The position numbers were made by a program, and so were the translations under genes. 64,000 nucleotides of DNA. Origin: an uncultured Methanosarcinales archaeon (GTDB lineage: Archaea > Nanobdellota > Nanobdellia > Woesearchaeales > DSVV01). This document shows positions 12,588-54,143 of the stretch, in pieces; position 1 is the stretch's first letter; each line of letters opens with the position of its first letter. Under the pieces are notes generated by a model. It had not been told where the DNA came from. It was given only the letters and a program-made list of their open reading frames with translations, and made no database searches. The stretch covers positions 2,089 through 66,088 of the forward strand of contig CAZKVI010000003.1 in NCBI GenBank assembly GCA_964556185.1, written 5' to 3'.

Positions 12588-13892
12588 ATGGTAAAAAGAG
12601 CTGGAATGAAACAAAAGTTAGGAGTAATTAAGGAATTTGAAGACTTAATAGTTGAATATCCTATTATTGGTTCTGTTAATATGACTTCTTTACCAACTAA
12701 AACAGTTCAGCAAATGAGAGCTCAATTAAGAAAAAAAGGCGTTGTCCTTAAAATGAGCAAAAGAAGATTAATTAATATTGCAATAAATAATTGTAAAGAG
12801 AAAAAGAAAGGTATTGAAAATCTTCTACCTGAACTTAAAGGTATGCCAGCATTAATATTCACAAAAGAAAATCCTTTTGCATTATACAAGTTTTTATCTA
12901 AGAATAAATCATCTGCTCCTGCAAAAGCAGGCCAAATAGCTCCAAATGAAATTGTAGTTAAAGCAGGTCCAACAGGTTTTTCACCAGGACCAATTATTGG
13001 AGAACTAGGTGCTGTAGGAATTAAAGCAGGTGTTGATGGTGGAAAGATTGCAATCAAAGCAGATAGTGTTGTAGCTAAAGAAGGAGATGAAATTACAGAA
13101 CAATTAGCAGCAATATTAACAAGACTTGGTATTGAACCAATGGAAATTGGTTTAAACATGGTTGCAGTATTTGAAGAAGGTAATGTTTATGATAGTAAAA
13201 TCTTAGCAATTGATGAAGATGAATACATGAATAACATAACAACAGCAGCAACTTGGGCTTTCAACTTAGCAGTTGAAGCAGCAATACCAACACCAGATAC
13301 AACAGAATTACTATTACAAAAATGTTTCAAAGATTCCAAAGCAGTTGCAATGGAAGGAAATATTATGGCAGATGCTGTTGCAGAAGAATTACTTGCAAAA
13401 GCTGAAAGAGAAATGTTAGCTCTAAAAGCAGAAGCAAATATTAGTGATGCACCAGTAGTTGACAAAGTCAACGAAGAAGCGCAAGCTTCTGTAAAAGAAG
13501 AAGTTAAAGAAGAACCAAAAGCTGAAGAAAAACCAGCTGAAGAAGCAAAAGAAACAGAAACAAAAGAAGTTTCCGAACTTTCCGAGGGAAAGCAAGAAGC
13601 TGATAAAGCTTCTGTGGGAAACGAAGAAGTCGCAGAGACTTCTGAAGAAAAACCAGCAGAAACTACAGAAACTAAAGAAGGACCTGAAGCAGAAGGAGCT
13701 GATGAGGCACCTAAAGCAGAAGAAAAACCAGCTGAACCTGCACCAGCAGAGGAAGCAAAAGCTGAAGAGAAAGCTGATGAGGCTAAACCTGAAGCTAAAG
13801 AAGAAGCTGCACCAGAAGAACCAGCTAAAGAAGAACCTAAAGCTGAAGAAGCTCCTGCAAAAGCAGAAGATAAACCAGCTGATGAATCATAA
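12588..13892 (+). CDS. rplP0: 50S ribosomal stalk protein P0 (L10) with a long E/K/A/P-rich C-terminal extension
   Basis: The N-terminal 280 aa are typical archaeal P0. The C-terminal ~140 aa are low-complexity and end 'AEDKPADES' rather than the GLGALFG-type tail. Confidence 0.9.
13576..13617. repeat. copy of the 42-nt double-hairpin module (inside the P0 coding sequence)
   Basis: 'aactttccgagggaaagcaagaagctgataaagcttctgtgg' is 36/42 identical to 53151-53192. The stem differences are compensatory (CT..AG versus TC..GA). Confidence 0.7.
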
Positions 13893-17021: not shown

Positions 17022-17164
17022 TTATAGAGAAGATTTGAAGGGGATTTATAAATGTTTAGGTCCTTACTACTATTTTCCATTACATACAGAAGCTAACGCT
17101 TCTTACTTTACTGCGTAAAGTTTATATATGAACTAATCCCTAAAATACTAAAAGAGGGGACAAT

Positions 17165-19498: not shown

Positions 19499-19505
19499 CT
19501 ATTAA

Positions 19506-20112: not shown

Positions 20113-20144
20113 GTTATTTCTTTTATTATTTAATTTAGAATTGA

Positions 20145-21172: not shown

Positions 21173-21227
21173 CATAAGTTCTATTAGTCATTTACTATTA
21201 ATTAAAGGCATATTGGAGGTAAATAAA

Positions 21228-21545: not shown

Positions 21546-21556
21546 GGTGTAATAAG

Positions 21557-21847
21557 ATGGCAGCAATAAAGAAAATGGTTAAAAAACCTGGCAAAGAAGA
21601 AGCCTCTGCAAAAGGTCAAGTTAATTTTTCTTATGCAGTTCCTGCAAAAGTTGAAGAAGTAATTGGCAGAACTGGATCAAGAGGAGAAGCTACTCAAGTA
21701 AGATGCAGGGTTTTAGATGGTCGTGATAAAAACAAAGTATTGAGAAGAAATGTTAAAGGTCCTGTTCAAAAAGATGATGTGTTAATGTTAAGGGAAACAG
21801 AAATCGAAGCTAGACCATTAACAAAAGCAGGAAGAGGACAAGGGTGA
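21557..21847 (+). CDS. rps28e: 30S ribosomal protein S28e (with N-terminal extension)
   Basis: '[51 protein letters not shown]' matches S28e. Confidence 0.85.
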
Positions 21848-21852
21848 TTATA

Positions 21853-22035
21853 ATGGTTAAATGTACTTTTTGTGCAAACGAATTCCCTAAAGGAACTGGA
21901 AAGATCTTTGTTAAAAAAGATGGAAAAATATTTTATTTTTGTTCAAGCAAATGCGAAAAAAGTCTCTTAAAATTAAAGAGAAATCCAAGAAAAACTTCAT
22001 GGACAGAAACATGGAGAAAAATAAAAAAGAAATAG
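21853..22035 (+). CDS. rpl24e: 50S ribosomal protein L24e
   Basis: 'MVKCTFCANEFPKGTGKIFVKKDGKIFYFCSSKCEK' matches L24e. Confidence 0.85.
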   Translation: MVKCTFCANEFPKGTGKIFVKKDGKIFYFCSSKCEKSLLKLKRNPRKTSWTETWRKIKKK

Positions 22036-22047
22036 GTGATGTTAATG

Positions 22048-22524
22048 ATTCAACAAACATTAGTTTTACTAAAACCTGATGCAGTCGAAAGAGGACTTAC
22101 AGGTAGAATAATTGATAGGTTTGAAACAGCTGGATTAAAACTTATAGCTATGAAAATGGTTTGGATTGATAAGGAGTTTTCAAAAAAGCATTACAAAGCT
22201 CACGTCGACAAACCTTTTTATGCAGGTCTTGAAGAATTTATTGTTTCAGGTCCAGTAGTTGCAATAGCTATTGAAGGTATTGAAGCTGTTGAACTTGTAA
22301 GAAAAATGGTTGGTGCAACAGAACCAAAAGCTGCTCAACCTGGTACAATTAGAGGAGATTTTTCACATCACTCTTATGGTTATGCTGACGAAAAAGGCAT
22401 AGCAATCAAAAACCTAGTTCATGCTTCTGGTAGCTTAGATGATGCTAAAGAAGAAATGAAAATTTGGTTTACAGAAGAAGAACTACATAAATATGATTTA
22501 GTTCATGAAAAACATACAAGATAA
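22048..22524 (+). CDS. ndk: nucleoside diphosphate kinase
   Basis: 'QQTLVLLKPDAVERGL', 'GATEPKAAQPGTIRGDF' and 'NLVHASGS' are present. SD 'aggtga' lies 9 nt before ATG 22048. Confidence 0.9.
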   Translation: MQQTLVLLKPDAVERGLTGRIIDRFETAGLKLIAMKMVWIDKEFSKKHYKAHVDKPFYAGLEEFIVSGPVVAIAIEGIEAVELVRKMVGATEPKAAQPGTIRGDFSHHSYGYADEKGIAIKNLVHASGSLDDAKEEMKIWFTEEELHKYDLVHEKHTR

Positions 22525-22549
22525 ACAAAAGAATTAGTGAGGTAGTAAA

Positions 22550-24718
22550 ATGGGAGAAAAGATGGTAGATAGGGTTACAAGAAGTATGAAGAACAAAGAA
22601 CAAATTAGAAATATTGCTATTTGTGCTCATATTGATCATGGTAAAACAACATTCTCAGATAACTTATTAGCAGGAGCAGGAATGTTGAGTGAAGAAATCG
22701 CAGGAAAAGCTTGTGTTCTTGATTTTCACGATGACGAACAAGAAAGAGGAATCACAATTGATTCTGCAAGTGTATCTATGGTTCACACTTTCAAAGAAAA
22801 AGATTACTTAATTAACTTAATTGATACTCCTGGTCACGTTGATTTTGGTGGAGACGTTACAAGAGCAATGCGTGCAGTTGATGGTGCAATTGTTTTAGTA
22901 GACGCTGTTGAAGGTGTTATGCCACAAACAGAAACAGTTCTAAGACAAGCATTAAAAGAAAGAGTTAAACCAATACTTTTCATTAATAAATCTGATAGAT
23001 TAATCAAAGAATTACAATTAACACCAGAACAAATGCAAGAAAAGTTTGTCAAAGTGATTACACATGTTAATAAATTAATCAAAGATATTGCAGGCGAAGA
23101 ACTTGGAAACAAATGGCAAGTTAATGTTCAAGACGGTTCTGTTTGTTTTGGATCTGCTTTCCACAATTGGGCACTTTCTATTGACTACATGCAGTCAAAA
23201 GGAATTTCTTTTAAAGATATTATTGATGCTTATGAAGCAGGCGAAGAAGCTTACAAAGAACTTGGAAAAAAAGCACCTTTGCATGAAGTTATCTTAAATT
23301 CTGTTATTACACATCTACCAAATCCAGATGAAGCTCAAAGATATAGAATTCCAAAGCTTTGGAGAGGAGATATGGAAAGTGAAGACGGAAAAGGATTAAT
23401 ATCATGTGATCCAAATGGCCCTTTATTTTTTATAATTACAAAAATTGTTGTTGATCCTCAAGCAGGAGAAATCTCTGCCGGTAGATTATTCTCAGGAACA
23501 ATGAAAAAAGGGACACCTGTTTACTTAAACAGAGCAAAGTGTAATTTAAGAGTACAACAAGTGTTTATTTACAATGGATCTAAAAGAGAAATTGTCGACG
23601 AGGTTCCAGCAGGAAACATTATTGGTGTAGCTGGATTAAAAGCAGCTCCTGGAGAAACAATTACATTAGAACCTTCAGAACCTTTTGAAGAAATTAAACA
23701 CATTTTTGATCCTGTTGTTACAAAAGCAATTGAAGCAGCAAGACCAAGCGATCTTCCAAAATTAATTGAAGTCTTAAGAATGGTTCAAAAAGAAGATCCA
23801 ACAATTAAAATTGAAATTAATGAAGAAACAGGCGAACATTTAATGAGTGGAATGGGTGAACTACACCTGGAAGTAATTGAAAATAGAATTAAGACAGAGA
23901 AAAATGTAGAAGTAAAGACTTCACCACCTGTTGTTGTTTACAGAGAAACCATTACAAAAACATCTGAAATATTTATGGGTAAATCCCCTAATAAACACAA
24001 CCATTTATTCTTTAGTGTGGAACCAGTTCCACAAGCTGTAGCTGATGCAATTAAGTCTGGCGACATCCCATCTGGAAGAATAAAGAAAAAAGACATTGAA
24101 TTAAGAGACAAATTGGTTGATTTAGGAATGGACTCTAAAATGGCTTCACAAGTTAAAAATATTCATGAAGGAAATATGTTATTTGAAACCACACGTGGTC
24201 AAGTACATATTGGAGAAATCATGGAAATGGTTAACGATATGTTTGAAGATGTTATGCATGCAGGTCCAGTTGCTAGAGAACCATGTACAGGAGTTTTAGT
24301 GAAATTTGTTGATTGTAAATTACATGAAGATGCTATTCACAGAGGTCCTGCACAAATGTACCCAGCAATTAGAGAAGGTATTAGAGAAGCAATGGCACAT
24401 GCAAAACCAATGATCTTTGAACCAGTACAAACCCTTCAATTCGAGGCTCCTGAAGAATTTATGGGAGAAGTTTCCAAATTAATCTCTAACAAAAGAGGAC
24501 AACTATTAGACATGCAACAAGATGCAGGTACAGTAGTTGTAAAAGGTAAAATGCCAGTTGGAGAAATGTTTGGGTTAAGTAATGATCTTAGATCTGCAAC
24601 AGGGGGAAGAGGAAGCTCTTCTTTAGTTGATCAGACATTCGAAAGACTACCTGATGAATTACAGCAAAAGATCATAAAACAAATTAGAGATAGAAAAGGG
24701 CTAACAGATGCTCAATAA
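22550..24718 (+). CDS. fusA: translation elongation factor 2 (aEF-2)
   Basis: G domain motifs 'AHIDHGKTT', 'DTPGHVDF' and 'NKSDR' are present, as is the diphthamide region 'HEDAIHRGPAQ'. Confidence 0.95.
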   Translation: MGEKMVDRVTRSMKNKEQIRNIAICAHIDHGKTTFSDNLLAGAGMLSEEIAGKACVLDFHDDEQERGITIDSASVSMVHTFKEKDYLINLIDTPGHVDFGGDVTRAMRAVDGAIVLVDAVEGVMPQTETVLRQALKERVKPILFINKSDRLIKELQLTPEQMQEKFVKVITHVNKLIKDIAGEELGNKWQVNVQDGSVCFGSAFHNWALSIDYMQSKGISFKDIIDAYEAGEEAYKELGKKAPLHEVILNSVITHLPNPDEAQRYRIPKLWRGDMESEDGKGLISCDPNGPLFFIITKIVVDPQAGEISAGRLFSGTMKKGTPVYLNRAKCNLRVQQVFIYNGSKREIVDEVPAGNIIGVAGLKAAPGETITLEPSEPFEEIKHIFDPVVTKAIEAARPSDLPKLIEVLRMVQKEDPTIKIEINEETGEHLMSGMGELHLEVIENRIKTEKNVEVKTSPPVVVYRETITKTSEIFMGKSPNKHNHLFFSVEPVPQAVADAIKSGDIPSGRIKKKDIELRDKLVDLGMDSKMASQVKNIHEGNMLFETTRGQVHIGEIMEMVNDMFEDVMHAGPVAREPCTGVLVKFVDCKLHEDAIHRGPAQMYPAIREGIREAMAHAKPMIFEPVQTLQFEAPEEFMGEVSKLISNKRGQLLDMQQDAGTVVVKGKMPVGEMFGLSNDLRSATGGRGSSSLVDQTFERLPDELQQKIIKQIRDRKGLTDAQ

Positions 24719-24738
24719 TTCTTTCTTTATTTTTCTTA

Positions 24739-26331
24739 TTATTTTTTCAATTGCTCAGATTTAGCAAAATCTCTATTTGCTTCATCTTGTCTATCCATCC
24801 TTTCTAGTGCACAACCTCTATTGTTATAACATGTAGCCAAGAATTCATCTGAAACGTCTTCTGCTTTATCAATTACAATTGAATATTGTTCAAATGCATT
24901 TTCATTATCTCCTTTTTTAAGGTAAGCATATCCTAATCCTGATATTGCATCATAATCATCTGGTTCTAATTTTAATTGTTCAAATCTACACTCAATAGCT
25001 AAATCATATTCTTCTAAGCTTACAGCTGCAACTGCAGCATTATTATAAACAGCTTTTTGTGTTCCTTCCTCTAATTCATTTCTAACTTCTATTAATATTT
25101 TATAATGACGTAGTGCATCTTCTTTATTTCCAAGTTCTCCATTAGCATAAGCTACACCAAAACGTGCATCATGATTATTTGGATCAAAAGCAAGTAAATA
25201 ATAACCATCTACAATAGCACCTTTCCAATCACCGACTTCTCTTCTTGCACCAAAACTATTAGTTCGTATATACATACAATTAGGAAATAAAGAACTTGCT
25301 CTATTCAAACAATCAGAAGCTTTTTCCATACATTGCTCTTTTTCACCTTCTTCAGCAATATCAGATCTTACTATCCATTCATATCCTAAGTTCCCATACA
25401 TAATTCCAGCAATTTGTTTTTTATTAAGACCTTTCATATATCCTCCTCTTTCTAATTCATCTCTACCTAAACCAAATTCTTCAATATATTCTTCATCACT
25501 CCTTGCAATTCCTGCAGTAGTTTCCCAATTCACATGACTACCATCAAATTTCCCCCATCTTACAAACATATGTTCTGGGCCTAATACAGCTTCAATAGGG
25601 AAATTAAGTACTTGCCCAATTGCAAGATAAATCATTGACATATTGTCACAATCCATTTGGTAAAATCCTTGACTATATTTTTCTATTTTTCTTCTTCTTG
25701 AACCTCTTCTATATTCACTAAGGAAAGAGAAATAACCAGAAGGAGATTGAGTACGTAAAATATGATCATTTATGAAATCATTTACTTCTTCTGATGCTTC
25801 TGTAAATTCATCTCCTTCAAAATCAATAATTTTTTGAGCATTTCCTTCATCTTTTAGATATTCTACAATTTCTCCTTCTTGTTTTGTAAATGCTGAACCT
25901 AGTCTATTATTTTCTTTATAAACAACATTAAATATATCAGAAAGAGCTTCATCAATCCATCCCATAATCTTTCTTATGTCATCTAGATCATATGTTTCTA
26001 TCATTTCACTACTAAAAGCTGAGTCAACTCCTTCCTCACCAAGCCTTGAACCTAAAGATACTCTTTCTGGGCTTGCAATTTCTGCTTTATATTTTGTTCT
26101 AATTTCATGAATAACAGAATCTAAGAAATCATAATTTTCTTGAGTTACTTCAAAACCTTGTAGATGTTCAGCATCTAAAAATGAATGAGCATATGTATTA
26201 TATCTAGAATCAAATCCAGATCTTTCTCTCTCAATTGCCAAGGCTGTAACAGGTGCAAAACTAGTCACAATTGCTGCCAAACCAGCTGCAGCTCCACTAG
26301 CACCCAAAAACCACCTTCTACTCCTTTCCAT
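24739..26331 (-). CDS. Tat-signal protein with a SirB1-like transglutaminase-fold domain and C-terminal TPR repeats
   Basis: 'MERSRRWFLGASGAAAGLAAIV' carries a twin-Arg motif. 'DCDNMSMIYLAIGQVLNFPIEAVLGPEHMFVRW' shows the Cys...His spacing of Transglut_core2. The C-terminal ~200 aa are TPR-like. Confidence 0.55.
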   Translation of the reverse strand: MERSRRWFLGASGAAAGLAAIVTSFAPVTALAIERERSGFDSRYNTYAHSFLDAEHLQGFEVTQENYDFLDSVIHEIRTKYKAEIASPERVSLGSRLGEEGVDSAFSSEMIETYDLDDIRKIMGWIDEALSDIFNVVYKENNRLGSAFTKQEGEIVEYLKDEGNAQKIIDFEGDEFTEASEEVNDFINDHILRTQSPSGYFSFLSEYRRGSRRRKIEKYSQGFYQMDCDNMSMIYLAIGQVLNFPIEAVLGPEHMFVRWGKFDGSHVNWETTAGIARSDEEYIEEFGLGRDELERGGYMKGLNKKQIAGIMYGNLGYEWIVRSDIAEEGEKEQCMEKASDCLNRASSLFPNCMYIRTNSFGARREVGDWKGAIVDGYYLLAFDPNNHDARFGVAYANGELGNKEDALRHYKILIEVRNELEEGTQKAVYNNAAVAAVSLEEYDLAIECRFEQLKLEPDDYDAISGLGYAYLKKGDNENAFEQYSIVIDKAEDVSDEFLATCYNNRGCALERMDRQDEANRDFAKSEQLKK

Positions 26332-26569
26332 TAAATCAAGGAATAAATTGGCTATATATAATCCTTTCTATAGCGTATTATTTCTAAGTAAATACGCTTT
26401 ATTCAGCTAAAAAACCCAAAAAAAGCCCATTTTCAGCTTTAGAATACGTAACCTTTTTAAATCACTGAAATTTTATCCCTAATACATAAAAAGAGGCAAA
26501 GAAGCCTTTAAATCATGAATAGGGCTCAATTAAGGCTCAAAATCAAGAAAACAGTTGGAGGAATAGAGA

Positions 26570-27862
26570 ATGGCAGATAAAAAAATCCATATAAACCTTG
26601 TTTTTATCGGACACGTCGATCACGGTAAATCCACTACAGTAGGAAGACTACTTTTCGATTCAGGAAATATTGATGAAGCAGCAATGAGAAAGTTAAAAGA
26701 CAAAGCACAAGAGCTTGGAAAAGGTGGCTTTGAATTCGCTTTTGTCATGGACAACTTAAAAGAAGAAAGAGAAAGAGGAGTTACAATTGATCTAGCTCAC
26801 AAAAAGTTTGAGACAGACAAATACTACTTCACTATTATCGATGCACCAGGTCACAAGGACTTTATCAAGAACATGATTACAGGAGCATCACAAGCAGATG
26901 CAGGTGTTTTAGTTGTAGCTGCAAATGATGGTGTAAATGCACAAACAAAAGAACACGTCTTCTTATCCAAAACACTTGGAGTTAACCAATTAATTGTTGC
27001 AGTTAACAAAATGGATATCTCAGGTGTTGACTATGCTGAAGCAAAATTCAATTCAGTTCAAGAAGAAGTAGGAACACTTTTGAAATCAGTAGGTTATAAA
27101 GCAGATGAAATTCCATTTGTAGCAATCGCTTCTTTACCAGGAGATAATGTTGTTAAGAAAACAGACAAAATGCCATGGTATAAAGGAAAATCATTATTAG
27201 AAACAATCAATGATCTTAAGGAACCTGAAAAACCAACAGAACTTCCACTAAGACTTCCAATCCAAGATGTTTATAACATCACAGGTATTGGTGTTGTCCC
27301 AGTTGGAAGAGTTGAAACAGGTGTACTAAAAGTTGGACAAAAAGTTGTAGCAATTCCAGGAAGAGAAGGAAAAGGAGTTCCAGGCGAAGTTAAATCTATT
27401 GAGATGCATCACGAACAATTACAAGAAGCTGTTCCAGGTGACAACTGCGGATTTAATGTTCGAGGCTTTGGAAAAACAGACATTGCAAGAGGCGATGTTA
27501 TTGGTCCAGCAGATAATGCACCAACATTAGCAACAGAATTCACAGCACAAATTGTTGTGTTAAATCATCCATCTGTTGTAACTGTCGGTTACACACCAGT
27601 ATTCCACATACATACAGCTCAAGTTGCATGTCAAATTACAGCAATTGAGAAAAAGCTAAATCCAGCAACTGGAGAAGTTTTAGCAGAAAATCCTGACTTC
27701 ATCAAAAATGGTGACGCAGCAATTGTTAAAATTAAACCAGTACAACCTTTAGTAATTGAAACACAAAAGGAAATTCCACAACTTTCAAGATTCGCAATCA
27801 GGGATTCCGGTGCAACAGTTGCAGCAGGTATGTGTACAGCTTTAACTAAAAAGGAACTTTAA
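26570..27862 (+). CDS. tuf: translation elongation factor 1-alpha (aEF-1A)
   Basis: '[10 protein letters not shown]', 'DAPGHKDF' and 'NKMD' are present. SD 'ggagga' lies upstream. Confidence 0.95.
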
Positions 27863-27926
27863 ACCTTTTTATTTTATTTTATTTTTTTCATGATCATTCA
27901 CACGGTTTTCATGAGGTAAACAGAGA

Positions 27927-28235
27927 ATGCAAAAAGCAAGAATAAAGATAGCAAGTACAGACATAGACAAGATTAATAATACTTGTAGGTATATTTCTGA
28001 TATAGCTGATAAAACTGGTGTTGATATGCGTGGTCCTATTCCTTTACCAACTAAAAAATTAAAATTAACTACTCGTAAAACTCCTTGCGGAGACGGAAAA
28101 GCTTCCTGGGAAAGATACGAAATGCGAATTCATAAAAGATTCATTGATCTCGGCTTAGATGAAAGAGCTTTAAGATTGGTTATGAGGGTACCAATACCTG
28201 AAGGCTTGAACATAGAAATTGAAATGATTGATTAA
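27927..28235 (+). CDS. rps10: 30S ribosomal protein S10
   Basis: 'ARIKI.S.D...L...C..I...A...G....GPIPLPTK' pattern. It has the conserved position after tuf. Confidence 0.9.
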   Translation: MQKARIKIASTDIDKINNTCRYISDIADKTGVDMRGPIPLPTKKLKLTTRKTPCGDGKASWERYEMRIHKRFIDLGLDERALRLVMRVPIPEGLNIEIEMID

Positions 28236-28262
28236 GTTTGTTCTTGATTAACTCTTAGAATT

Positions 28263-28293
28263 GAGGCCGAAAGGCTCGAAGTCGAAGACTTCG
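28263..28293. repeat. two adjacent GC-rich mini-hairpins between the rps10 3'-end copies
   Basis: GAGGCC-GAAA-GGCTC is followed directly by (C)GAAGTC-GAA-GACTTC(G). The second hairpin recurs at 51907-51923 and, in variant forms, elsewhere. Confidence 0.6.
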
Positions 28294-28297
28294 CCCG

Positions 28298-28336
28298 CCT
28301 GAAGGCTTGAACATTGAGATTGAAATGATAGACTGA
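28298..28336 (+). repeat. second copy of the last 12 codons plus stop of rps10
   Basis: 'cctgaaggcttgaacattgagattgaaatgatagactga' versus 28197-28235 'cctgaaggcttgaacatagaaattgaaatgattgattaa'. The two are 34/39 identical and both translate to PEGLNIEIEMID*. Confidence 0.85.
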
Positions 28337-28390
28337 TTCTACCCAAAAGCTTTTATTTGATACTTGATTTCTCTCTATTTAGGGTGCAAA

Positions 28391-28828
28391 ATGGCTAAAG
28401 TTAAGAGTAATGCAATTGGAAAACTTGAAGATGGTACTGAAGATAATAGAGCATATAATGCATTGGTTCGTCAATATGGTGTTGCATTTAAAGAATTATA
28501 TGATAATTTTCCAAGAGAACCAAAACCAAGATTAGGTCTTTATATGATGAGTATTAAAAGACCTGAAGGAGTCTTACGTCTTACACCAGGGGTTGTTGGT
28601 AGTTCATCAGATGGGATCCAGAAAAGAGTTCAAGCACATCTAGGAAAATGCTTAGATCAAATTGGATTAGATGATTTATGTATGGACGTTTTTACAGTTT
28701 CTTGTAATAGTACGAGCAGTGTTTGTGAAATAACTCCTTACACACTTGAAGCTAGAGCTTATTTAAAACATTATGGACAACAAATACTTGTTCCAGAAAT
28801 GCGAAGATTAAGATCTCAATCAAAATAA
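28391..28828 (+). CDS. hypothetical protein
   Basis: ATG 28391 follows 'gggtgcaaa'. The listed TTG start at 28364 lies in the promoter-proximal 'ttgatttctct' block. No family recognised. Confidence 0.5.
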   Translation: MAKVKSNAIGKLEDGTEDNRAYNALVRQYGVAFKELYDNFPREPKPRLGLYMMSIKRPEGVLRLTPGVVGSSSDGIQKRVQAHLGKCLDQIGLDDLCMDVFTVSCNSTSSVCEITPYTLEARAYLKHYGQQILVPEMRRLRSQSK

Positions 28829-29232
28829 TCTTCATAAGCAAATTTTCTTTTTTCAAATGTACAAGATCCTTTGTCTTCAATAACATTTCCATCTAGAGAA
28901 TTCCTAAATCTAGCAATTAATGCATTACAATCACTACATCTTCGAAAACAAGTTCCAATTTCCACTTCAAAACCTTTTTCATTTAATTGTTTTAACTTAG
29001 TTGGCACTTCTGCTCTTTCTCTGAAGACATTATAAACATTATGAACAAAAGAAGAATCAATTATTGCATCAGAGAGTCTAATTTGAAGTTTACATTTCTT
29101 AGGTGCTTTAGTTTCAACAACATCTTTCCTTATAAGGATACATCTAGAATTCTTTAGTCTATTCTCTCTATCTTGCTTTTGCTTTGCAAACTTATCAGGA
29201 AGTTTAATACTTCCATCAGGATTGAATTCCAT
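28816..29232 (-). CDS. hypothetical protein
   Basis: Start moved to MEFNPDGS (ATG 29232), because the listed N-terminal 32 codons are the antisense or same-strand read-through of a tRNA gene. The ATG lies 5 nt after the tRNA 3' end. Confidence 0.45.
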   Translation of the reverse strand: MEFNPDGSIKLPDKFAKQKQDRENRLKNSRCILIRKDVVETKAPKKCKLQIRLSDAIIDSSFVHNVYNVFRERAEVPTKLKQLNEKGFEVEIGTCFRRCSDCNALIARFRNSLDGNVIEDKGSCTFEKRKFAYEDYFD

Positions 29233-29236
29233 TTTA

Positions 29237-29356
29237 CGGGCCCACGGGGATTCGAACCCCGGGCCTATGGCTGTCTGTGCGTAAGCAAAGACCCAGTGGA
29301 TCTTTGATCCTAACGCGTAAGAGGCCACCGCTCTAACCAGGCTGAGCTATGAGCCC
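29237..29356 (-). tRNA. tRNA-Lys(CUU) with a 45-nt canonical (37/38) intron
   Basis: Acceptor GGGCTCA/TGGGCCC. D arm GCTC-AGCCTGGTTA-GAGC. Anticodon stem GTGGC/GCCAT with loop CTCTTA|A. T arm CGGGG-TTCGAAT-CCCCG. G73. Confidence 0.75.
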
Positions 29357-29361
29357 ATAAA

Positions 29362-29442
29362 GGGCTTGACTGACCAAAGGGAAGGAAACCCTTCTTGCGT
29401 GTCGACCGAGCGTAACCAGTCGCCACGGGTGAGATTGAGCCC
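29362..29442 (-). ncRNA. 81-nt GC-rich structured element transcribed ahead of tRNA-Lys (leader or independent small RNA)
   Basis: TATA 'tttataaa' lies about 27 nt upstream on the minus strand. End pairing is GGGCU/AGCCC, with inner helices GACUG/CAGUC and AAGGG-UUUCCUU-CCCUU. It starts with GGGCTCA, as the tRNA does. Confidence 0.35.
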
Positions 29443-29485
29443 ATATTATTCTCAGAATTAAATATTAATTTATAAAAGTTCTTGA

Positions 29486-30367
29486 TTATCCTTGATAAAA
29501 ACCAATTAACTGTCTTTGTCTCTTAACATGTCTTAATTTTCTTAAGGCTTTTACTTCGATTTGTCTTATTCTTTCTCTTGTTAAATCAAATACTTGACCA
29601 ATCTCTTCAAGAGAATAATGACGAGGATGATCAATTCCATATCTCATTTTCATAACTTTTTCTTCTCTGGGTGTTAATTCAGCAAGTACACTTCTAACAG
29701 CCTTTGCTAAATCAGAATCCCCTACATTTTCATCAGGTCTTCGAACACTAGCTCCTTCTATAAAATCACCTATGGTTGCATCTGATTCATCACCAACTTT
29801 TTGCTCTAATGATAATGGTTCTCTTGCAAGCCTATAAATATCTTCAATTTTTTCAACTGGTTCACCTAACCAATCTGCAATTTCTTCAGAAGTTGGTTCT
29901 CTACCAAGATCAGTAACAAGTTTTCGAGCCGTTCTTCTAACTTTAGTAACCATTTCTAATTTATAAATTGGAATTCTTATTGTTCTTACTGTAGCTTCTA
30001 TTCCTCTAATAACACTTTGTCTAATCCACCAAGAAGCATATGTAGAAAATTTATATCCTCTTCTATATTCAAATTTTTCAACAGCTCTTATTAAACCTAA
30101 ATTACCTTCTTGAATTAAATCACCAAGTGGCAAGCCTCTATATTGGTATTGTCTTGCAATACTAACAACTAGTCTTAAATTGCCTTTTATTAAATCTTCT
30201 TTAGCTGTAGCTGCTTCATAAGGAGTGCCTTCTTCCATTGTTGTAGCTAATCTAACTTCATCATCTCTAGATAATAATGCTACAGCCCCCATTTGATTCA
30301 TATACTTCCTTAGAACTCTAGGATCATCTCTATATCTTGGCCCACCTTGATAATGACTAACACCCAT
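29486..30367 (-). CDS. bacterial-type RNA polymerase sigma-70 family factor (regions 2, 3 and 4; no region 1.1)
   Basis: '[61 protein letters not shown]' covers regions 2.1-2.4. '[13 protein letters not shown]' is region 3.0. '[15 protein letters not shown]' and '[29 protein letters not shown]' cover regions 4.1-4.2. Confidence 0.9.
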
Positions 30368-30502
30368 TTCATAAGGTAATCAATAGTTACTTTTAAACCT
30401 TCCTAGGTGGTCTGTGTTGATTATACCCATTCTCAAGTAGTTAAAAACAGAAAGGCTTATATATGGGATAAAGTACCTTCATATATAAAGTGGGGTTTAA
30501 AT

Positions 30503-31510
30503 ATGAGTAAAGCAAGACAGCTTATACAAAGAGCATTGGCAGCAAAAGATGATGAATTTTTTGATGGTGTTTATAGATTTAAAAGAGGAAATGTGTTTTC
30601 ACCAATCCCTATAGACACAGCTGACCATCTTGATCTTTATAGTTCTATAGTTCAGCTTTTGAGACCAAGCAGAACACCAAGAAAATCTATTGGGGCAACT
30701 CTACTTTATCTTTTCTTAGTATCTTCACAGGAGTTTTATGGTCAAGGACCTAAAAATTATACAACTTTTGGAAGAAGAGGAAGAGATCAAATGAAAGAAC
30801 AATTGGAAGCATATTGTAGTTCTATATCTGCTTTAGAAATTGTTTATCATGATAATAATACACCAGATGGAGCTAATGCAACTGTAGGTAAATTTGATGA
30901 ACATAGCACAAGACATGAATTAGAAGATTTACTAGATCTTGTTCGAACTGATGAATGGAGAGAAGGAAGAAGTTATGAAATTGTTTATGTACAATCACCA
31001 GGAGATCTTGTTAGTGAAGATGGCAGAGAAGATATTGTAGCAGGTAGTTTATCTCAAAGATTTATAGAAGGACTTAGAGTACACGAAGATTATTTTGCAA
31101 CAAATGATACATTTAGAGAAGAAGTACCTGATGAAGATTATGCACACCTTTTTGAAGGTGATGTTAGTCATAGGGAAACATATGAACTATGTGATCAATA
31201 TCTTGTAGATCACCAAGAACTTTCAGATACAACAAGAGAACATCTTGAAGGATTTAGAGCTAGAATGTTATTCATGGCATGCTCACAAGAACAAGACCCA
31301 AAGGCGGAAGCTTTCTTTGATGGATTAGTTGCCCAAGTTTTACCAGCTCTCCCAACAGAAGAGTTTTACATAAATCAACTAGCTAGAAACGTTGCACAAA
31401 CTGGCGGTGTGTTAATTCTTGAAGGATTCCAACAACAAGAAGTAGAAGGTTTCGAACTTCTCCAAGAAGATAGGAATGTTCGTTTATACACTAGAGTTGT
31501 TGAGGAATAA
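30503..31510 (+). CDS. hypothetical acidic protein, divergent from the sigma-70 gene
   Basis: ATG 30503 follows 'gtggggtttaaat'. The BRE/TATA 'gaaaggcttatatat' lies about 35 nt upstream. No family recognised. Confidence 0.55.
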   Translation: MSKARQLIQRALAAKDDEFFDGVYRFKRGNVFSPIPIDTADHLDLYSSIVQLLRPSRTPRKSIGATLLYLFLVSSQEFYGQGPKNYTTFGRRGRDQMKEQLEAYCSSISALEIVYHDNNTPDGANATVGKFDEHSTRHELEDLLDLVRTDEWREGRSYEIVYVQSPGDLVSEDGREDIVAGSLSQRFIEGLRVHEDYFATNDTFREEVPDEDYAHLFEGDVSHRETYELCDQYLVDHQELSDTTREHLEGFRARMLFMACSQEQDPKAEAFFDGLVAQVLPALPTEEFYINQLARNVAQTGGVLILEGFQQQEVEGFELLQEDRNVRLYTRVVEE

Positions 31511-31561
31511 CTCTAACTATTTATCAATAAACTTTAAAAGGACTTAATTTATTCCTAATTT

Positions 31562-32260
31562 ATGGATAACTCATTTATTGCTGAAGTTTTGAAATATTCT
31601 AATATGATGAATGTTGAGCAAGGTATGAATATTTATCATTTATTAAGTCAAGTACTTGCACAAGATATTCCTGGAGAAATAGTTGAACTTGGGTGTTATG
31701 AAGGTATTACAGGTGTTCTTATCCAGAAAACATTAGATCAAGCAAATAGTAAAAAAGAATTACATTTATTTGATTCTTTTGAAGGCTTACCAAAAGTCTT
31801 ACCAGAAGATGGTCTTACTACAGCAAAAGAAGGTATGTTACGAACAGCAAAAGATAGTGTTATAGCAAACTTTAACAGATTTAATTTAAAACAACCTACT
31901 ATTTTTGAAGGTTGGTTTAAAGATACTTTACCAACTAATCTACCTGATAAAATATGTTTTGCACATTTAGATGGAGATATGTATTCTTCAATAATAGAAA
32001 GTCTTAATTATATTTATCCAAAACTTTCTAAAGGTGCAATTGTTATTATTGATGATTATTATTGTCGTGAAGGCCATATGAAAATAGAAAAAAGAATGAA
32101 TGAAAATTCATACCAACAATTTCGTAATATAATAACAGAAGTCAAAGATATTCTTCCAGGTGTAAAAAAAGCATGTGATGAGTTCTTTGAAGATAAACCA
32201 GAGAAAATAATTGTTTTAATGGCAGGTTGCGAAAGACATGCATATTTTAAGAAAATGTAG
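31562..32260 (+). CDS. TylF/MycF-like class I SAM-dependent methyltransferase
   Basis: 'IVELGCYEGITG', 'LFDSFEGLP', 'AHLDGDMYSS' and 'GAIVIIDDY' match macrocin-O-MTase-family motifs. Confidence 0.65.
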   Translation: MDNSFIAEVLKYSNMMNVEQGMNIYHLLSQVLAQDIPGEIVELGCYEGITGVLIQKTLDQANSKKELHLFDSFEGLPKVLPEDGLTTAKEGMLRTAKDSVIANFNRFNLKQPTIFEGWFKDTLPTNLPDKICFAHLDGDMYSSIIESLNYIYPKLSKGAIVIIDDYYCREGHMKIEKRMNENSYQQFRNIITEVKDILPGVKKACDEFFEDKPEKIIVLMAGCERHAYFKKM

Positions 32261-32295
32261 TTAAATTTATAATACATTGCTTCTAATCTAAGAAA

Positions 32296-32973
32296 ATGGA
32301 AAAACTACACAGAGTTCAGAAATTATTAAGCAACTACGGCTATTGTTCTAGACGAAAAGCTGAAACATTAATCCAAGATGGAAGAGTTAGAGTAAATAAC
32401 AAAAGAATTACAATTGGTGATAAAGCTACTGAGAAAGATAATTTATATGTAGATAATAAACTAGTAAATAAAGAAAGTAAAATATACATAATCTTCAACA
32501 AACCTGTTGGTTGTGTAACTGCAGTAAGAGACAGAGATTACAAAACAGTTATGGATTTTGTAAAAGTTAAAGAAAGAGTTTTCCCAATTGGAAGATTAGA
32601 TTTCAACACTTCTGGATTATTATTGTTAACAAATGATGGAGACTTTGCTAACAAAGTAATGCATCCAAGATATGAAGTAGAGAAAACATACATCGTAGAA
32701 ATTGACAGACAAATTAGTAAAAAAGATATGCTAAATATCCAAAGAGGAGTTAAATTAAGAGATGGATTCACTTCCCCAGCTAAACTTAGAAGAATTAACT
32801 TAGATATAATAGAAATTAAAATCCACGAGGGCAAAAACAGAGTTGTAAGAAGAATCTTCAACAAATTAGGTTATAGAATTAACTCATTAGAAAGAGTTGC
32901 AATTGGTAAACTAAGATTAGGCAAATTACAATCTAAAAAATACAAAATTCTAAAAACAGAACCAAGAATTTAA
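32296..32973 (+). CDS. RsuA/RluB-family pseudouridine synthase with an S4 domain
   Basis: S4 domain 'RVQKLLSNYGYCSRRKAETLIQDGRVRVN'. Catalytic motif 'PIGRLDFNTSGLLLLTNDG'. Confidence 0.85.
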   Translation: MEKLHRVQKLLSNYGYCSRRKAETLIQDGRVRVNNKRITIGDKATEKDNLYVDNKLVNKESKIYIIFNKPVGCVTAVRDRDYKTVMDFVKVKERVFPIGRLDFNTSGLLLLTNDGDFANKVMHPRYEVEKTYIVEIDRQISKKDMLNIQRGVKLRDGFTSPAKLRRINLDIIEIKIHEGKNRVVRRIFNKLGYRINSLERVAIGKLRLGKLQSKKYKILKTEPRI

Positions 32974-35222
32974 CCCCAAGAATAATCAACAACTATATGC
33001 ACTGGAACTATTGTGCCACCATACTCAAAATTTCCCATACCTGCTCCTTGTAATCTTGTTGCATCGTTATTTAATTCTGCTAAAACATCTGGATTATTTG
33101 GATAATGAGGAACAACACTAGTCTTACTTGTAGATGAATCATGGAAATATCCAAATGGATCTGGTGTTGCAATTCCCCAGAAATCACATGTTCTTGAGAA
33201 CTCAGAAGACTCCCACCAAGATAATAACCAGTCAGTACTTCCATCATAAACATTCAAATTAACTTCATAAGCAGAAGGATCATCTTCAGAAGCTTCTAAT
33301 CTTGTTGGTGCTTTACTTGAAGAAGGATATTTCTCATCAACTTCCCATGTATTATATTCAGAACCACTTACAGTACTTGAATCACTTTCCCATTGCAGAC
33401 TACATGATCTTGCGTATTCTATAAATTGGTGTTCATTATAACTATAATAAAGCATTTGATCTTTAACAACAAACTCATCATTGTCCTCGTCATAAACCAA
33501 TGTATCTCTTGACATCATATATCCTCTTTCAAACCAAGATCCTGTTCCAGGATCTCCTGATAAAGTTAATTCAGACATATCTACAGATGTACTATAACTC
33601 CATGAATAAGTTGTATAACCACTCCATTCAGGAGCACATTTACCTTCTGCATCAATATCAAATTGAGTAAATGCAATATTATCTAAATGTGAATTTGCAA
33701 CAATAACAACTGCTACATCTATTTCTTCTGTTGGTCTTGTTCTACAAAATTTTAACTTTTTCAACTCAGAAACATCTTGGTAAAACCAATGCTCTCCAAT
33801 TTTATAAACTATTTGTGTTGCAAAGTCTGGTTGAGAATCTGTAGTAATTAAACTAAAATCAAACTCAACTCTATCAATATCATCTTCAAAGAAATAATAA
33901 TAATACATTATTCCTCCTGGGTTTAAATTAACTTCTTGAGTGTATTTTTCTTTATTCTCAAATGTTTTCTTTTTCCTACTTTGTCCATATGGTTTTTTTG
34001 TTGGTTTATTATTATGATCATAATAAAACTTAAATGGTTCTGTATTGTAATTGTATAAAGCATATTGTTTAAACTCTTCATAAAAGTCTGGTCTATTTTT
34101 TATTGCATCTTTCATACCTAATAAACCTGCTTCATCTAACATTTTCTTGACGACCATTCCATCTTTTCCATATCTATGTGATAAAAACCAAGGCCATAAA
34201 TAAGAACCATATTGATGATAAGTTACATTATCAGAGTCAAAAAAATCTTTATTAAAATAAGGAAAAATATTACTATCAAAACCATGCTCTGTATTAACTT
34301 CAGGATATGTAAAATCTTCTGACCATGTTGCAGTTGATTCCCAAATCCATTCTTCTGTAGAATATGACTTCAAAGGAATATATTGTTGAAAACAATGAAA
34401 TAATTCATGTGCTGTTGATGTTTTTAATGCATCATCACTTTGTGAAGTACTAATTAAAATATGACATCTATTAGCTCCTTCATGATCATCCATATATTGT
34501 TGTCCATCATCTTCTAAGCTTTGTACTTTTACATAAATCCAATCTGTTGGTTCTTTCATTCCAAGATTTTTATATTTATTATAAGAATGTTCTAAAGCAG
34601 CTTTTACAATATCTGCTTTATCAGTTATCCAAGGATCATCATAATGCACTTGCCATTTTCCATCAATTGGATGTTCATTATCCATTGCATTTACTGAAGG
34701 TATAATAGCTACTGCATCTAAAAATTCCCTTGCTAAAGATTCATCTTCTTGATTAATTTTATACCAATAACTTTCAGGATCATCAGGATTTGTAACAAAA
34801 GGTCTTAGAATATCTTGTGTTTCCTCAGAGAAATCATCAATTCTATCATTAATCATCAATAATAAGAAAGAACTATCTCTTCTTTCTGCTCTAATTGATT
34901 TGTATTCATTTGGTAAGTTTTTATGATCAAATGCTTCCAAAACTCTTAGAATATAATACTCTTCTTCTGTAATTATTCCTTTATTATGATAAGCATCATT
35001 GATTAATGTTAGAGATAATGGTTCTTCAGGTTCCTCTGGTTCTCTTTCTTCATAAATATCTAATAACCAGTCTTCAAAATCACTTGTATCTACATTACCA
35101 CCACCAATTGAAAATCCACTATCATCACTTCCACAACCTTTGAATAACAAGAATAGAATTACTAATATTACAATACCTACAATTGCAAGAAGAATAGTTT
35201 TCCGCCCCATAGGCATTTCCAA
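32970..35222 (-). CDS. membrane-anchored or secreted protein with an HExxH metalloprotease-like motif
   Basis: N-terminal anchor 'KTILLAIVGIVILVILFLLFKGC'. 'TSTAHELFHCFQQ' contains HExxH. The extracellular part is large, W/Y/D-rich and contains very few Lys (Lys-poor). Confidence 0.5.
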   Translation of the reverse strand: MEMPMGRKTILLAIVGIVILVILFLLFKGCGSDDSGFSIGGGNVDTSDFEDWLLDIYEEREPEEPEEPLSLTLINDAYHNKGIITEEEYYILRVLEAFDHKNLPNEYKSIRAERRDSSFLLLMINDRIDDFSEETQDILRPFVTNPDDPESYWYKINQEDESLAREFLDAVAIIPSVNAMDNEHPIDGKWQVHYDDPWITDKADIVKAALEHSYNKYKNLGMKEPTDWIYVKVQSLEDDGQQYMDDHEGANRCHILISTSQSDDALKTSTAHELFHCFQQYIPLKSYSTEEWIWESTATWSEDFTYPEVNTEHGFDSNIFPYFNKDFFDSDNVTYHQYGSYLWPWFLSHRYGKDGMVVKKMLDEAGLLGMKDAIKNRPDFYEEFKQYALYNYNTEPFKFYYDHNNKPTKKPYGQSRKKKTFENKEKYTQEVNLNPGGIMYYYYFFEDDIDRVEFDFSLITTDSQPDFATQIVYKIGEHWFYQDVSELKKLKFCRTRPTEEIDVAVVIVANSHLDNIAFTQFDIDAEGKCAPEWSGYTTYSWSYSTSVDMSELTLSGDPGTGSWFERGYMMSRDTLVYDEDNDEFVVKDQMLYYSYNEHQFIEYARSCSLQWESDSSTVSGSEYNTWEVDEKYPSSSKAPTRLEASEDDPSAYEVNLNVYDGSTDWLLSWWESSEFSRTCDFWGIATPDPFGYFHDSSTSKTSVVPHYPNNPDVLAELNNDATRLQGAGMGNFEYGGTIVPVHIVVDYSWG

Positions 35223-43204: not shown

Positions 43205-43206
43205 TT

Positions 43207-43300
43207 TATACTAAAAGTGATTAATTTTCGTACAAATTAATCACTTTTGTATATACCAGAGTGTAAAATAATTTGACTTTATTTTACACTTTAAGTATAT
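43207..43300. repeat. palindrome-rich intergenic module, copy 1
   Basis: 'tatactAAAAGTGATTAATTTtcgtacAAATTAATCACTTTTgtatata...AGTGTAAAATAAtttgactTTATTTTACACTttaagtatat'. It shares its ends and core with 50041-50116. Confidence 0.7.
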
Positions 43301-52469: not shown

Positions 52470-53072
52470 ATGCAGTGGAAAAAACTATCTCCATACATAT
52501 TATCTTTCTTTGTGTTACTTACAGCAGTTTATGCAAGAACTAGGTTTCCAACAGGAGAATTAAGAGATGTTATGAATGTATTTGGAGATATTTACAACCA
52601 AGCACCATATTTAGTTGATGCATTAGTATTATTAATTATATTTGTACCTTTAGCAAGGAAGATCCTAGGAGAAAGACTAGGTAAAGTCCCAGCAACAGGC
52701 TTAGGATTTTTATTAGTGCTTTCAGTTATTGTTTCAGAAGCAAAATTCGATTATAGTATTATTAGGGATTTTAGTATTCCAGCAGTTATAATCTTATTAT
52801 CAATGTTTGGAATTAGTTTATTTGTTATGTTAAAACAATTTGATGCAAATACTTGGTTAGCAGTCAGTGCTGGTTGGGTAGCTGTTGTCGTAGTATCTTA
52901 TTTTGCAGTCCCAGATGTTGTTGAAATGATACAAAGAGATTATGAAGTCATTTGGTGGTTTTTAATTGTATTAACTGGATTTTTTATACTTGCATTTGTT
53001 TTTAGTATGTTCTTTGGCGGTGGCGGAGGGGGCCATCATGAACCAGCAGCTCCAGCAGCACCTCATCCTTAA
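52470..53072 (+). CDS. multi-pass membrane protein with a Gly/His/Pro tail
   Basis: Signal or first TM helix, then 'IYNQAPYLVDALVLLIIFVPLARK'. It ends 'GGGGGGHHEPAAPAAPHP'. It is a paralog of the next gene. Confidence 0.5.
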   Translation: MQWKKLSPYILSFFVLLTAVYARTRFPTGELRDVMNVFGDIYNQAPYLVDALVLLIIFVPLARKILGERLGKVPATGLGFLLVLSVIVSEAKFDYSIIRDFSIPAVIILLSMFGISLFVMLKQFDANTWLAVSAGWVAVVVVSYFAVPDVVEMIQRDYEVIWWFLIVLTGFFILAFVFSMFFGGGGGGHHEPAAPAAPHP

Positions 53073-53150
53073 TTACTTTTAGTATAAAATCAAACTAAAC
53101 ATTTATATATACTATTTCTTAGAAATTATACTATTGTGGGTAATCAATTA

Positions 53151-53192
53151 AACTTTCCGAAGGAAAGCAAGAAGTCGATGAGACTTCTGTGG
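53151..53192. repeat. copy of the 42-nt double-hairpin module at the 5' end of gene 53178
   Basis: 'aaCTTTCCgaaGGAAAGcaAGAAGTCgATGaGACTTCTgtgg'. ATG 53178 lies in the loop of the second hairpin. Confidence 0.7.
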
Positions 53193-54143
53193 AAGAGGAT
53201 AATATTAGTTTTATCTATATTTCTTGCTACATTGCAGACTACTCTAGCTTATTCTTGGAGTGAGTTTGTAAGCACAACAATGAAAATATACAATGCTCAA
53301 GCAGATTTCTTTTCTAATATATTTAATGCAGCACCTCCTTTATTCCATGCACTCTTTTATTGGCTTTTTATCTATATTGCAATCTTCAGAAAATATGTAA
53401 AACCAAAATTAGGAGCAGGTTTTGCATTGGGAATGCCTGTTTTATTAGCTCTTGGGGTTGTTACAGCTGAACGCTTAACAGGAGTAAGCTTTTTTTGGAT
53501 GTTTTTAATCTTTTTTGGAATATATAAAACATTGTTTGTAATTCTTGCATTCAGAAAAGCTAATTTTCCAGTAATTTTAATTGGATCATTAGCTTTTATT
53601 ATTGCATTTGTTCTTTTATTATTTTACCAACCAGCATGGTTTATTGATTTTAGACAAGATCATCCACTTATTATGTTATTAGGATATATTTTGTTTGCAA
53701 TCTTTTCAATAATTACTTTATTTGGTGCTTTTAGATACATAATTGGTGGAGGTTATAGTAATATTCAATGGCCACCTCCATTTAGACAAACATATAAAGA
53801 TTTATATGGTGATCCAGGATCCTCCTCCTCTTCAGGTCAATCAACACCAAATATGTCAAGATTACATAGAAAAGCTGAAAAGTTTCTTGCAAATTCTGCA
53901 GAATACGCTGCTGCAGAACAAAAGTATGCACAAATGAATGCATCACAAAGAGCAAAAGTAGAAAAAGATATGCAAGATAGTCGAATTTCTTTGATAGCAA
54001 GGGGAACTGCAATAAGAAATCATAAAAAATATGAAAGAGATGTTCCACAAGATGTTAAACATAGATTTGAAACAGCATTTAATGCTATTATGACTCAAGG
54101 TGGCTCACATGGTGGAGCAGGTGGCGGAGGCCCTGGCCATTAA
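53178..54143 (+). CDS. multi-pass membrane protein with a helical cytosolic tail, paralog of 52470
   Basis: ATG 53178 gives the signal-like 'MRLLWKRIILVLSIFLATLQTTLA'. 'IFNAAPPLFHALFYWLFIYIAIFRK' parallels the upstream paralog. It ends 'GGSHGGAGGGGPGH'. The listed GTG 53136 start is less likely. Confidence 0.5.
   Translation: MRLLWKRIILVLSIFLATLQTTLAYSWSEFVSTTMKIYNAQADFFSNIFNAAPPLFHALFYWLFIYIAIFRKYVKPKLGAGFALGMPVLLALGVVTAERLTGVSFFWMFLIFFGIYKTLFVILAFRKANFPVILIGSLAFIIAFVLLLFYQPAWFIDFRQDHPLIMLLGYILFAIFSIITLFGAFRYIIGGGYSNIQWPPPFRQTYKDLYGDPGSSSSSGQSTPNMSRLHRKAEKFLANSAEYAAAEQKYAQMNASQRAKVEKDMQDSRISLIARGTAIRNHKKYERDVPQDVKHRFETAFNAIMTQGGSHGGAGGGGPGH

Follow-up and report, generated by a model that had tools for sequence, protein, structure and literature searches.

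The double hairpin at the 5' end of a membrane-protein gene near position 53,150 is probably an old, fixed copy of a lineage-specific family of DNA elements, 36-44 nt in length and built of two tandem hairpins, in Woesearchaeota-like DPANN archaea. Alignment with close relatives shows gains of copies at different sites and in both orientations, as well as their survival in frame within permissive coding regions; this distribution of copies fits a selfish insertional element and not a conserved regulatory site. The window, by which we mean the whole 64,000-nucleotide stretch of DNA analysed, is archaeal with ~31% G+C, and carries the L1-P0-L12 operon, EF-2, EF-1a, S10, and intron-containing tRNAs; the nearest matches to its P0 and S10 carry the name Candidatus Woesearchaeota. 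Five full copies of the element (A, B, C, D, and F) are present in these 64 kb, and their coordinates are given in Table 1 together with those of the gene start at which copy A lies.

Table 1. Copies of the double-hairpin module in the window, related solitary hairpins, and features of the gene carrying copy A. Bit scores are those obtained with covariance model R1.
Feature	Position	Strand	Description
Module copy A, 39 nt	53152..53190	+	A + hairpin 1 + CA + hairpin 2 + GT; 56.1 bits
TATA box TTTATATA, promoter of the copy A gene	53102..53109	+	Octamer class as in ~19 other window promoters, 20-25 nt before leaderless ATG
In-frame GTG, candidate ancestral/leaderless start	53136..53138	+	26 nt past the TATA box; at or no more than ~4 nt from the predicted transcription start
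Loop ATG, candidate present-day start (MRLLWKRIILVLS...)	53178..53180	+	In the 5-nt loop of hairpin 2
CDS, membrane protein with signal peptide, without Pfam family	53178..54143 (53136-54143 if GTG start)	+	
Module copy B, 39 nt	13577..13615	+	In frame, C-terminal tail of ribosomal protein P0/L10; 52.6 bits
Module copy F, 36 nt	13457..13492	+	In frame, P0 tail; GTTGAC-aaa-GTCAAC-ga-AGAAGC-gcaa-GCTTCT-GT; 50.2 bits
Solitary hairpin-2-type stem AGAAGTC-gcaga-GACTTCT	13625..13643	+	P0 tail; partial or degenerate copy; 21 bits
Module copy C, 36 nt	17086..17121	-	Between two divergent promoters; 52.6 bits
Module copy D, 44 nt	51882..51925	+	AGTTTACG-gttttaca-CGTAAACT-a-AGAAGTC-gaa-GACTTCT-GT; 46.4 bits
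Solitary hairpin AGAAGTTC-aacaa-GAACTTCT	50130..50150	.	Long intergenic region; possible relative

Both the sequence as read and its folding bear out the earlier note's description of two hairpins with an ATG in the loop of the second. Positions 53153-53188 read CTTTCC-gaa-GGAAAG-ca-AGAAGTC-gatga-GACTTCT, with hairpin 1 at 53153-53167, hairpin 2 at 53170-53188, and the GATGA loop of the latter at 53177-53181; on folding, the strand forms these two hairpins and no other structure (-14.6 kcal/mol, z = -3.0). The exact 36-nt string occurs once in the window. The same module had also been said to lie elsewhere, and a close copy is indeed present at 13578-13613 (40 of 49 positions identical, BLAST E 9e-9); this is copy B, which reads CTTTCC-gag-GGAAAG-ca-AGAAGCT-gataa-AGCTTCT-GT and runs on into GG to give GTGG. 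Between copies A and B the stem of hairpin 2 differs by a compensatory TC/GA to CT/AG change. Hairpins of these kinds are strongly over-represented in the window, with four occurrences of GAAGTC-N(1-9)-GACTTC (0.03 expected) and eight AGAAG..CTTCT hairpins (1.3 expected).

The copies follow a common plan, running from ..AA through a variable, perfectly paired hairpin 1 and 0-2 nt to AGAAG(N1-3)-loop-(N1-3)CTTCT and a final GT. The consensus of hairpin 1 is ACTTTCC-GAA(A)-GGAAAGT, and the loops are mostly of a G..A type closed by C:G (GAA, GCA, GAAA, GCAA, GTTA). The spacing between AGAAG and CTTCT varies (6, 7, 9, or 11 nt) and the bases in between remain complementary. The two ends of the module, ACTTTCC.. 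and ..CTTCTGT, bear no inverted-repeat relationship to each other. A strict structural scan finds 12 distinct modules in the window and the related contigs L166, L169, L170, and L171 (~110 kb); all 12 are preceded by ..AA or ..TA, and in nine of them GT comes directly after the module. The tag 3' of hairpin 2 is GTGG, GTAT, GTAA, or GTAG. Hairpin 1 varies among the copies far more than would be expected for simple copies of one master element, and yet copies A, B, and the copy at L166-7169 have a common hairpin 1 at unrelated loci. In an alignment of ten copies, nine of the 13 stem pairs have two-sided changes and none has a one-sided change, figures that are biased by the initial choice of the copies as perfect hairpins.

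A covariance model built from ten copies (model R1) separates the family well from its surroundings: ingroup copies score 36-58 bits and everything else in the ingroup less than 24 bits. Together, the strict scan and model R1 yield 13 distinct copies in ~110 kb of ingroup DNA, eight of which lie beyond the window, in four related genomes (~46 kb). A scan of metagenome contigs with P0 returned only relatives at 59% identity or less, and these were used as an outgroup; no modules are present in them, with the strict scan giving zero in ~452 kb of this P0-selected, more distant Woesearchaeota DNA and model R1 a best score of 21.4 bits. The outgroup maximum, 23 bits, comes from L019, a contig chosen by the hairpin-2 pattern itself. 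Two wider pattern searches were set aside: the eight matches in viral contigs all score below 20 bits and are attributed to chance, and the pattern AAGAAGTC-N(3-5)-GACTTCTGT gives at least 107 matches across genome contigs, which are bacterial and mostly random.

Contigs of relatives were reached via orthologous proteins, and they differ in where the modules lie. L166, L167, and L168, whose P0 is 92% identical to that of the window, have four copies; L169 (P0 91%) has one; L170 (P0 68%) has three and a degenerate one; and L171 has one that is cut by the contig end. L166 has a copy downstream of the L12 gene, at a site that is empty in the window and also in the outgroup L170. Between the PIN and AP-endonuclease genes, copy C occupies the spacer in the window, L166 has a different copy (L166-10759) that is 30 nt away and in the opposite orientation, and L170 has none; both copies lie between divergent TATA boxes, outside the transcripts of both genes. 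The copy C junction, CATATATAA^[36 nt]^ATGTAATGG, is resolved to within 1 nt by the empty orthologous site in L166 and L168, and has no inverted ends. Insertion sites of this quality are few, with one clean filled/empty pair (copy C) and one approximate (L166-7169). Three copies in intergenic DNA (C, D, and L166-10759) directly adjoin a TATA box on its upstream side. The 5' end of copy C abuts the box at 17121-17128 (+ strand) of gene 17165-19261, and copy D abuts that of the minus-strand antitoxin gene, where it is antisense to both neighbours. This adjacency would follow from the apparent ..(T)AA^ insertion preference of the 12 strict-scan copies.

Copies within coding sequences are 36 or 39 nt long, and all keep the frame. 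The P0 segments corresponding to copies F and B and the third hairpin are missing from relatives' P0 at 84-92% identity (copy F from P0008, P0009, and P0007; copy B from P0 that is 91-92% identical). The P0 tails of L169 and L170 contain other copies at other positions, and P0008 and P0007 have neither these nor the copies of the window. Given that the reading frame runs on to a common C-terminus, ..KPADES, the copies in the P0 tail are translated. With gains at different sites in close relatives and a syntenic outgroup ortholog that lacks the module (see below), the suggestion that a mobile module had landed in the 5' end is well supported.

P0 itself (12588-13892, +) has a ~145-residue tail rich in K, E, A, and P that ends in ..KPADES and has no GLGALFG-type end, and the adjacent L12/P1 (13901-14245) retains such an end. 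Listed Woesearchaeota P0 proteins are mostly ~285 aa; among the relatives the length ranges from 350 to 597 aa, with a widely variable tail that is partly module-built. Copies cluster around the L1-P0-L12 ... S27e-S24e-Spt4-Rpb7-PIN region (window ~11900-17200) in all three species, with 3-4 copies per species at sites that differ by species; no module is present in ~27 kb of non-redundant DNA around EF-2/EF-1a/S10 (window 17200-33000) in the relatives (L180-L183). The clustering near ribosomal-protein genes could reflect function instead of tolerance. In L170, the K/E-rich tail of S24e contains a degenerate module (16552-16589, -; 23.7 bits) that has one G:T pair and whose hairpin 2 has decayed, which suggests that other ribosomal-protein tails also take up modules.

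Copy A is 100% identical in the relatives L006, L007, and L008. Their DNA is identical to the window from 53150 to ~53240, their proteins being 90% (L006), 90% (L008), and 78% (L007) identical, and the stretch from the GTG to the module differs only by aat to ata. Zero changes in the 39-nt module, against an overall divergence of ~17% in L007, indicate constraint; the synonymous conservation of the first 25 codons alone is unexceptional, runs of 22-27 synonymously unchanged codons occurring elsewhere in the gene. That conservation was rejected as evidence for a larger RNA structure, and the larger fold of 53132-53250 is only marginal (z = -2.2).

An exhaustive profile search finds a single distant homolog of the gene, P0126 (30% identity), on L171, a contig from the same sample as L170 and with the same gene order. 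The module is absent from this ortholog. L171 reads TTTATATA, 26 nt, and then GTA GGT AAA ATT AGA ATA AAA AAG AGT GTG ATA GTA.., and removal of 53152-53190 from the window gives GTG GGT AAT CAA TTA AGG AAG AGG ATA ATA.., which is translated as MGNQLRKRIILVLSIFLATLQTTLA. The product of this deletion is in frame and collinear with the VGKIRIKKSVIVGSIIFLASLQTALA of L171, such that MGNQLRKRIILVLS... aligns with VGKIRIKKSVIVGS..., both counted from 26 nt past the TATA box. An in-frame, collinear deletion product and an empty site in L171 identify copy A as an insertion at the extreme 5' end of the gene. Comparison with an orthologous locus lacking the module had been proposed as a check, and L171 provides it, deletion of copy A restoring a compact in-frame signal peptide. 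Copy A thus entered after the L170/L171 lineage had branched off but ahead of the divergence among the window and its three relatives, and it has not changed since. The GTGG at 53136 and 53189 was considered as a target duplication and rejected: it would not restore the ancestral frame, and none is found at the other copies.

The window contains 19 genes in which TTTA(A/T)A(A/T)A ends 20-25 nt before the ATG, a leaderless architecture, and internal genes have Shine-Dalgarno sequences of the GGAGG/GGTGA type. Given the TATA box at 53102-53109 (reported previously as catttatatata, 53100-53111) and a GTG 26 nt further on, transcription is predicted to start at ~53132-53136, roughly 17-20 nt upstream of hairpin 1, and the transcript would thus not begin with the hairpin as had been supposed. 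The loop ATG at 53178 is the sole ATG, as claimed, but the in-frame GTG at 53136 lies in the leaderless position. By a narrow preference, we take the loop ATG to be the present translation start, in which case the start codon and the residues MRLLW, the first five, would have come from the element. All 19 clear leaderless starts in the window are ATG and none is GTG, and a distance of 26 nt is one base outside the range of 20 to 25. The outgroup L171 has GTA, a non-start, at the same position and a single canonical start 27 nt further down, implying that this gene family does use a leadered start lacking a Shine-Dalgarno sequence. From the ATG, the n-region of the signal peptide is a normal seven residues, like that of the paralogous upstream gene 52470-53072, which begins directly with Met and a signal peptide; from the GTG it is 21 residues. 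Moreover, the GATGA loop of copy A differs from the GATAA of copy B at exactly the base, G, that makes the ATG. A 321-aa product from the ATG is on record for the strain in five contigs.

It is also conceivable, if less likely, that the family is as described here but the gene starts leaderless at GTG 53136, with the module translated as a 13-residue insertion in the n-region, NFPKESKKSMRLL, and the loop ATG incidental. The GTG is placed close to where leaderless ATGs lie, the frame is open from it, and the 39-nt insert is divisible by three; removal of the module leaves a compact signal peptide from the GTG, and modules are translated in P0 with the frame kept to ..KPADES. The ATG, for its part, is 42 nt past the GTG, has no Shine-Dalgarno sequence, and has base-paired flanks. 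Gene calls in the five ortholog clusters are divided, three using the ATG and two (P0002 and P0004) the GTG. That the module supplied or captured the start codon is thus plausible; use of both starts, or of another, is less likely than either the ATG or the GTG alone. The signal peptide is presumably cleaved after ..TLA, and the same mature protein would therefore result from either start, which probably explains why the insertion was tolerated and means that N-terminal proteomics could not decide between the two.

If the module were a cis-regulatory RNA with a dedicated role (as a thermosensor, a translational operator, or a site bound by a protein, for example) that presents or hides the start, the other copies would belong to the same regulon. 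This would accord with the perfect conservation of copy A in the window and three relatives, an ATG exposed in the loop of a stable hairpin, the compensatory stem changes across copies, and the several copies in or beside ribosomal-protein genes; we nonetheless regard it as improbable, because copies C and L166-10759 lie in untranscribed spacer at non-homologous positions and in opposite orientations, copy D runs antisense to the genes on either side, modules come and go among relatives with 92% identical P0, and in no other copy is there a start codon. Rfam has no match for the module at gathering or E-value thresholds. With near-identical modules in untranscribed spacers in either orientation and in coding sequences, a translational control device, one of the two purposes that the earlier note had offered, is not upheld as what the module is for; some effect of the conserved copy A on translation of its gene is possible. 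The MS2 replicase operator is a start-codon hairpin that acts as a translational operator, and copy A resembles it in placing a start codon within a small stable hairpin at a gene start. Unlike such an operator, the hairpin pair also occurs in untranscribed DNA and within coding sequences. Operators in double-stranded DNA for a dimeric transcription factor beside TATA boxes would place C, D, and L166-10759 where they are found, at the upstream edge of a TATA box, but that adjacency is accounted for by the ..TAA insertion preference; half-site spacings of 6, 7, 9, and 11 nt with complementarity kept describe a hairpin and not an operator of fixed spacing, and copies are found in coding sequences and at non-homologous positions of orthologous spacers, which makes operators very hard to credit.

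Local production of the palindromes by repair or replication, for example by template switching or snap-back synthesis at AGAAG/CTTCT-like sites, would not require transposition at all, and would explain why the sequence of hairpin 1 differs while its pairing is always perfect, with no one-sided changes; the empty allele of the L166 site downstream of L12 already has TAGAAGT, which resembles an arm of hairpin 2. Against this, the order of the hairpins, the linker, the conserved sequence of hairpin 2, and the terminal GT recur at unrelated sites; moreover, hairpin 1 of copy C is unrelated to the flanks of its empty site, and copies A, B, and L166-7169 have the same hairpin 1 at unrelated loci, such that we give local formation little weight. 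Copying of hairpin 1 from flanking DNA is specifically ruled out for copy C by the empty site. Two further candidates were rejected. An intrinsic terminator does not suit the absence of a T tract from the forward copies or the position of copy C between genes that diverge; and no flank helix of an archaeal bulge-helix-bulge intron can be drawn by eye, with the coding copies keeping frame to the P0 C-terminus as if translated.

For the insertional element that we prefer, insertion would occur 3' of ..AA, in many cases that of a TATAA in a TATA box, without terminal inverted repeats and apparently without target duplication. The lack of the former and the apparent lack of the latter, together with two hairpins on the same strand, asymmetric conserved ends (..AA^, ..GT), and very stable tri- and tetraloop types, would point to recognition of single-stranded hairpins. 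The weakest step is the mobilisation itself, in which the single-stranded hairpins might be moved by peel-and-paste, as in IS200/IS605 or REP-RAYT. No transposase or nuclease candidate appears in Pfam scans of the window or in the precomputed Pfam lists of the related contigs (~140 kb, a small part of each genome), and the window ORFs and those lists give no match to Y1_Tnp. More tentatively, and with rather less than an even chance of being right in full, the modules may form an undescribed class of DPANN elements, 36-44-nt tandem double hairpins lacking inverted repeats and target duplications and mobilised as single strands, which would lengthen proteins in frame (P0 and probably the S24e tail), reshape BRE/TATA regions, and here have donated a selected ATG and a structured initiation region.

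Several families of small palindromic repeats offer points of comparison. Repetitive extragenic palindromes (REPs and REPINs, with their RAYT proteins) are bacterial repeats tagged with GTAG (PMC3733652, PMC3116915), or sometimes with GTGG or GTRG (PMC3733652, PMC3116915). Like the modules, they are lineage-specific stem-loops of 20-40 nt in dispersed copies, with complementary-stem subfamilies and a short tag beside the stem, and are occasionally in frame in genes and at the N-termini of ORFs. The GT(A/G)N tag of the module is 3' of the hairpin on the GT-reading strand, a mirror image of the 5'-side GTAG of REPs (PMC3733652). The module unit consists of two different tandem hairpins on one strand, whereas a REP is a single hairpin or an inverted pair. 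A survey recorded GTAG and CGTC repeats solely in bacterial phyla (PMC3733652); the host of the modules, unlike those of REPs, is an AT-rich DPANN archaeon, and a RAYT was not found in the ~140 kb read. The CGTC-tagged repeats include the Rickettsia palindromic elements (RPEs) (PMC3733652), which like the modules are selfish palindromic repeats that insert in frame in protein-coding genes and are translated as an extra peptide. The modules in genes are 36-39 nt and confined to permissive segments (low-complexity tails and the n-region of a signal peptide), and RPEs are bacterial as well as CGTC-tagged. RPEs are ~100-150 bp in length.

Of the IS families found in archaea, IS200/IS605 has the widest distribution (PMC13343696), and its ends are found in non-autonomous derivatives known as PATEs (PMC3119063, PMC6006769). 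The modules share with these an asymmetric organization with a same-strand hairpin near each end and a lack of terminal inverted repeats, and may, from the few sites compared, also share insertion 3' of a short specific sequence and a lack of target duplications; they differ in being 36-44 nt long where PATEs are hundreds of nt, and TnpA was not detected in the ~140 kb read. In IS608 the hairpins are spaced from the cleavage sites, whereas the module hairpins are directly at the ends. A MITE was rejected, because the module lacks terminal inverted repeats and copy C is not flanked by a duplication. Set against REPs, RPEs, and IS200-derived small palindromic mobile repeats, the modules are distinct in their two-hairpin architecture and in belonging to a new host group. 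DPANN archaea have very small, streamlined genomes, and to our knowledge they are not known for dispersed repeats; the literature searched contains no description of archaeal REP-like elements.

So small and active a hairpin element would offer a compact model in which to study how archaeal DNA transposes as single strands. Through insertion at the BRE/TATA edge it would drive rapid promoter change, and likewise change in protein tails, that of a ribosomal stalk protein included. It is also a practical source of inconsistent start calls, with ATG assigned to the copy A gene in some relatives and GTG in others, and the copy A locus is a concrete, testable case of a mobile element possibly donating the start codon to a formerly leaderless gene.

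Several other features of the window were observed alongside the modules. A second version of the final 39 nt of the S10 gene (28197-28235) is present at 28299-28337, from which it differs at five positions, all of them synonymous. Between the two lies a G+C-rich hairpin pair, GGCC-gaaa-GGC and GAAGTC-gaa-GACTTC (28263-28293), and a 145-aa ORF without assigned function (28391-28828) follows the repeat. L182 (1864-2090) has the same arrangement, and L180 and L183 have neither repeat, hairpins, nor ORF; the 3' end of rps10 looks like the site of a small integrated cassette. The hairpin pair scores 11.5 bits with model R1 and, being part of this separate cassette common to L182, was rejected as a member of the module family. 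Nearby, a 293-aa ORF (29486-30367, -) encodes a complete bacterial-type sigma-70 set (regions 1.2, 2, 3, and 4); one or two sigma-70 genes are present at the same place in L180-L183, indicating a lineage feature and not contamination.

A pair encoding a ParE toxin and a MazE-like antitoxin (51341-51843, -) lies between an HTH gene (50896-51297) and gene 51961-52386, with copy D at its promoter-side edge. Two relatives, the P0005 contig and L171, have no such pair at this position; divergence from the outgroup is too great for the boundaries of the cassette to be defined. A 20-nt motif, TTAATYACTTTTAGTATAAA, occurs in three intergenic positions, 53069-53088 (+), which is directly after the stop of gene 52470, 50039-50058 (-), and 43205-43224 (-), and may be either a common terminator or promoter motif or another small repeat. 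The palindrome ACTTTTGTATATACAAAAGT at 50061-50080, in the long spacer near tRNA-Ala, is also present in a ~100-nt insertion (L008 ~520-620) upstream of the promoter of the copy A gene, and may represent a second type of small palindromic insertion.
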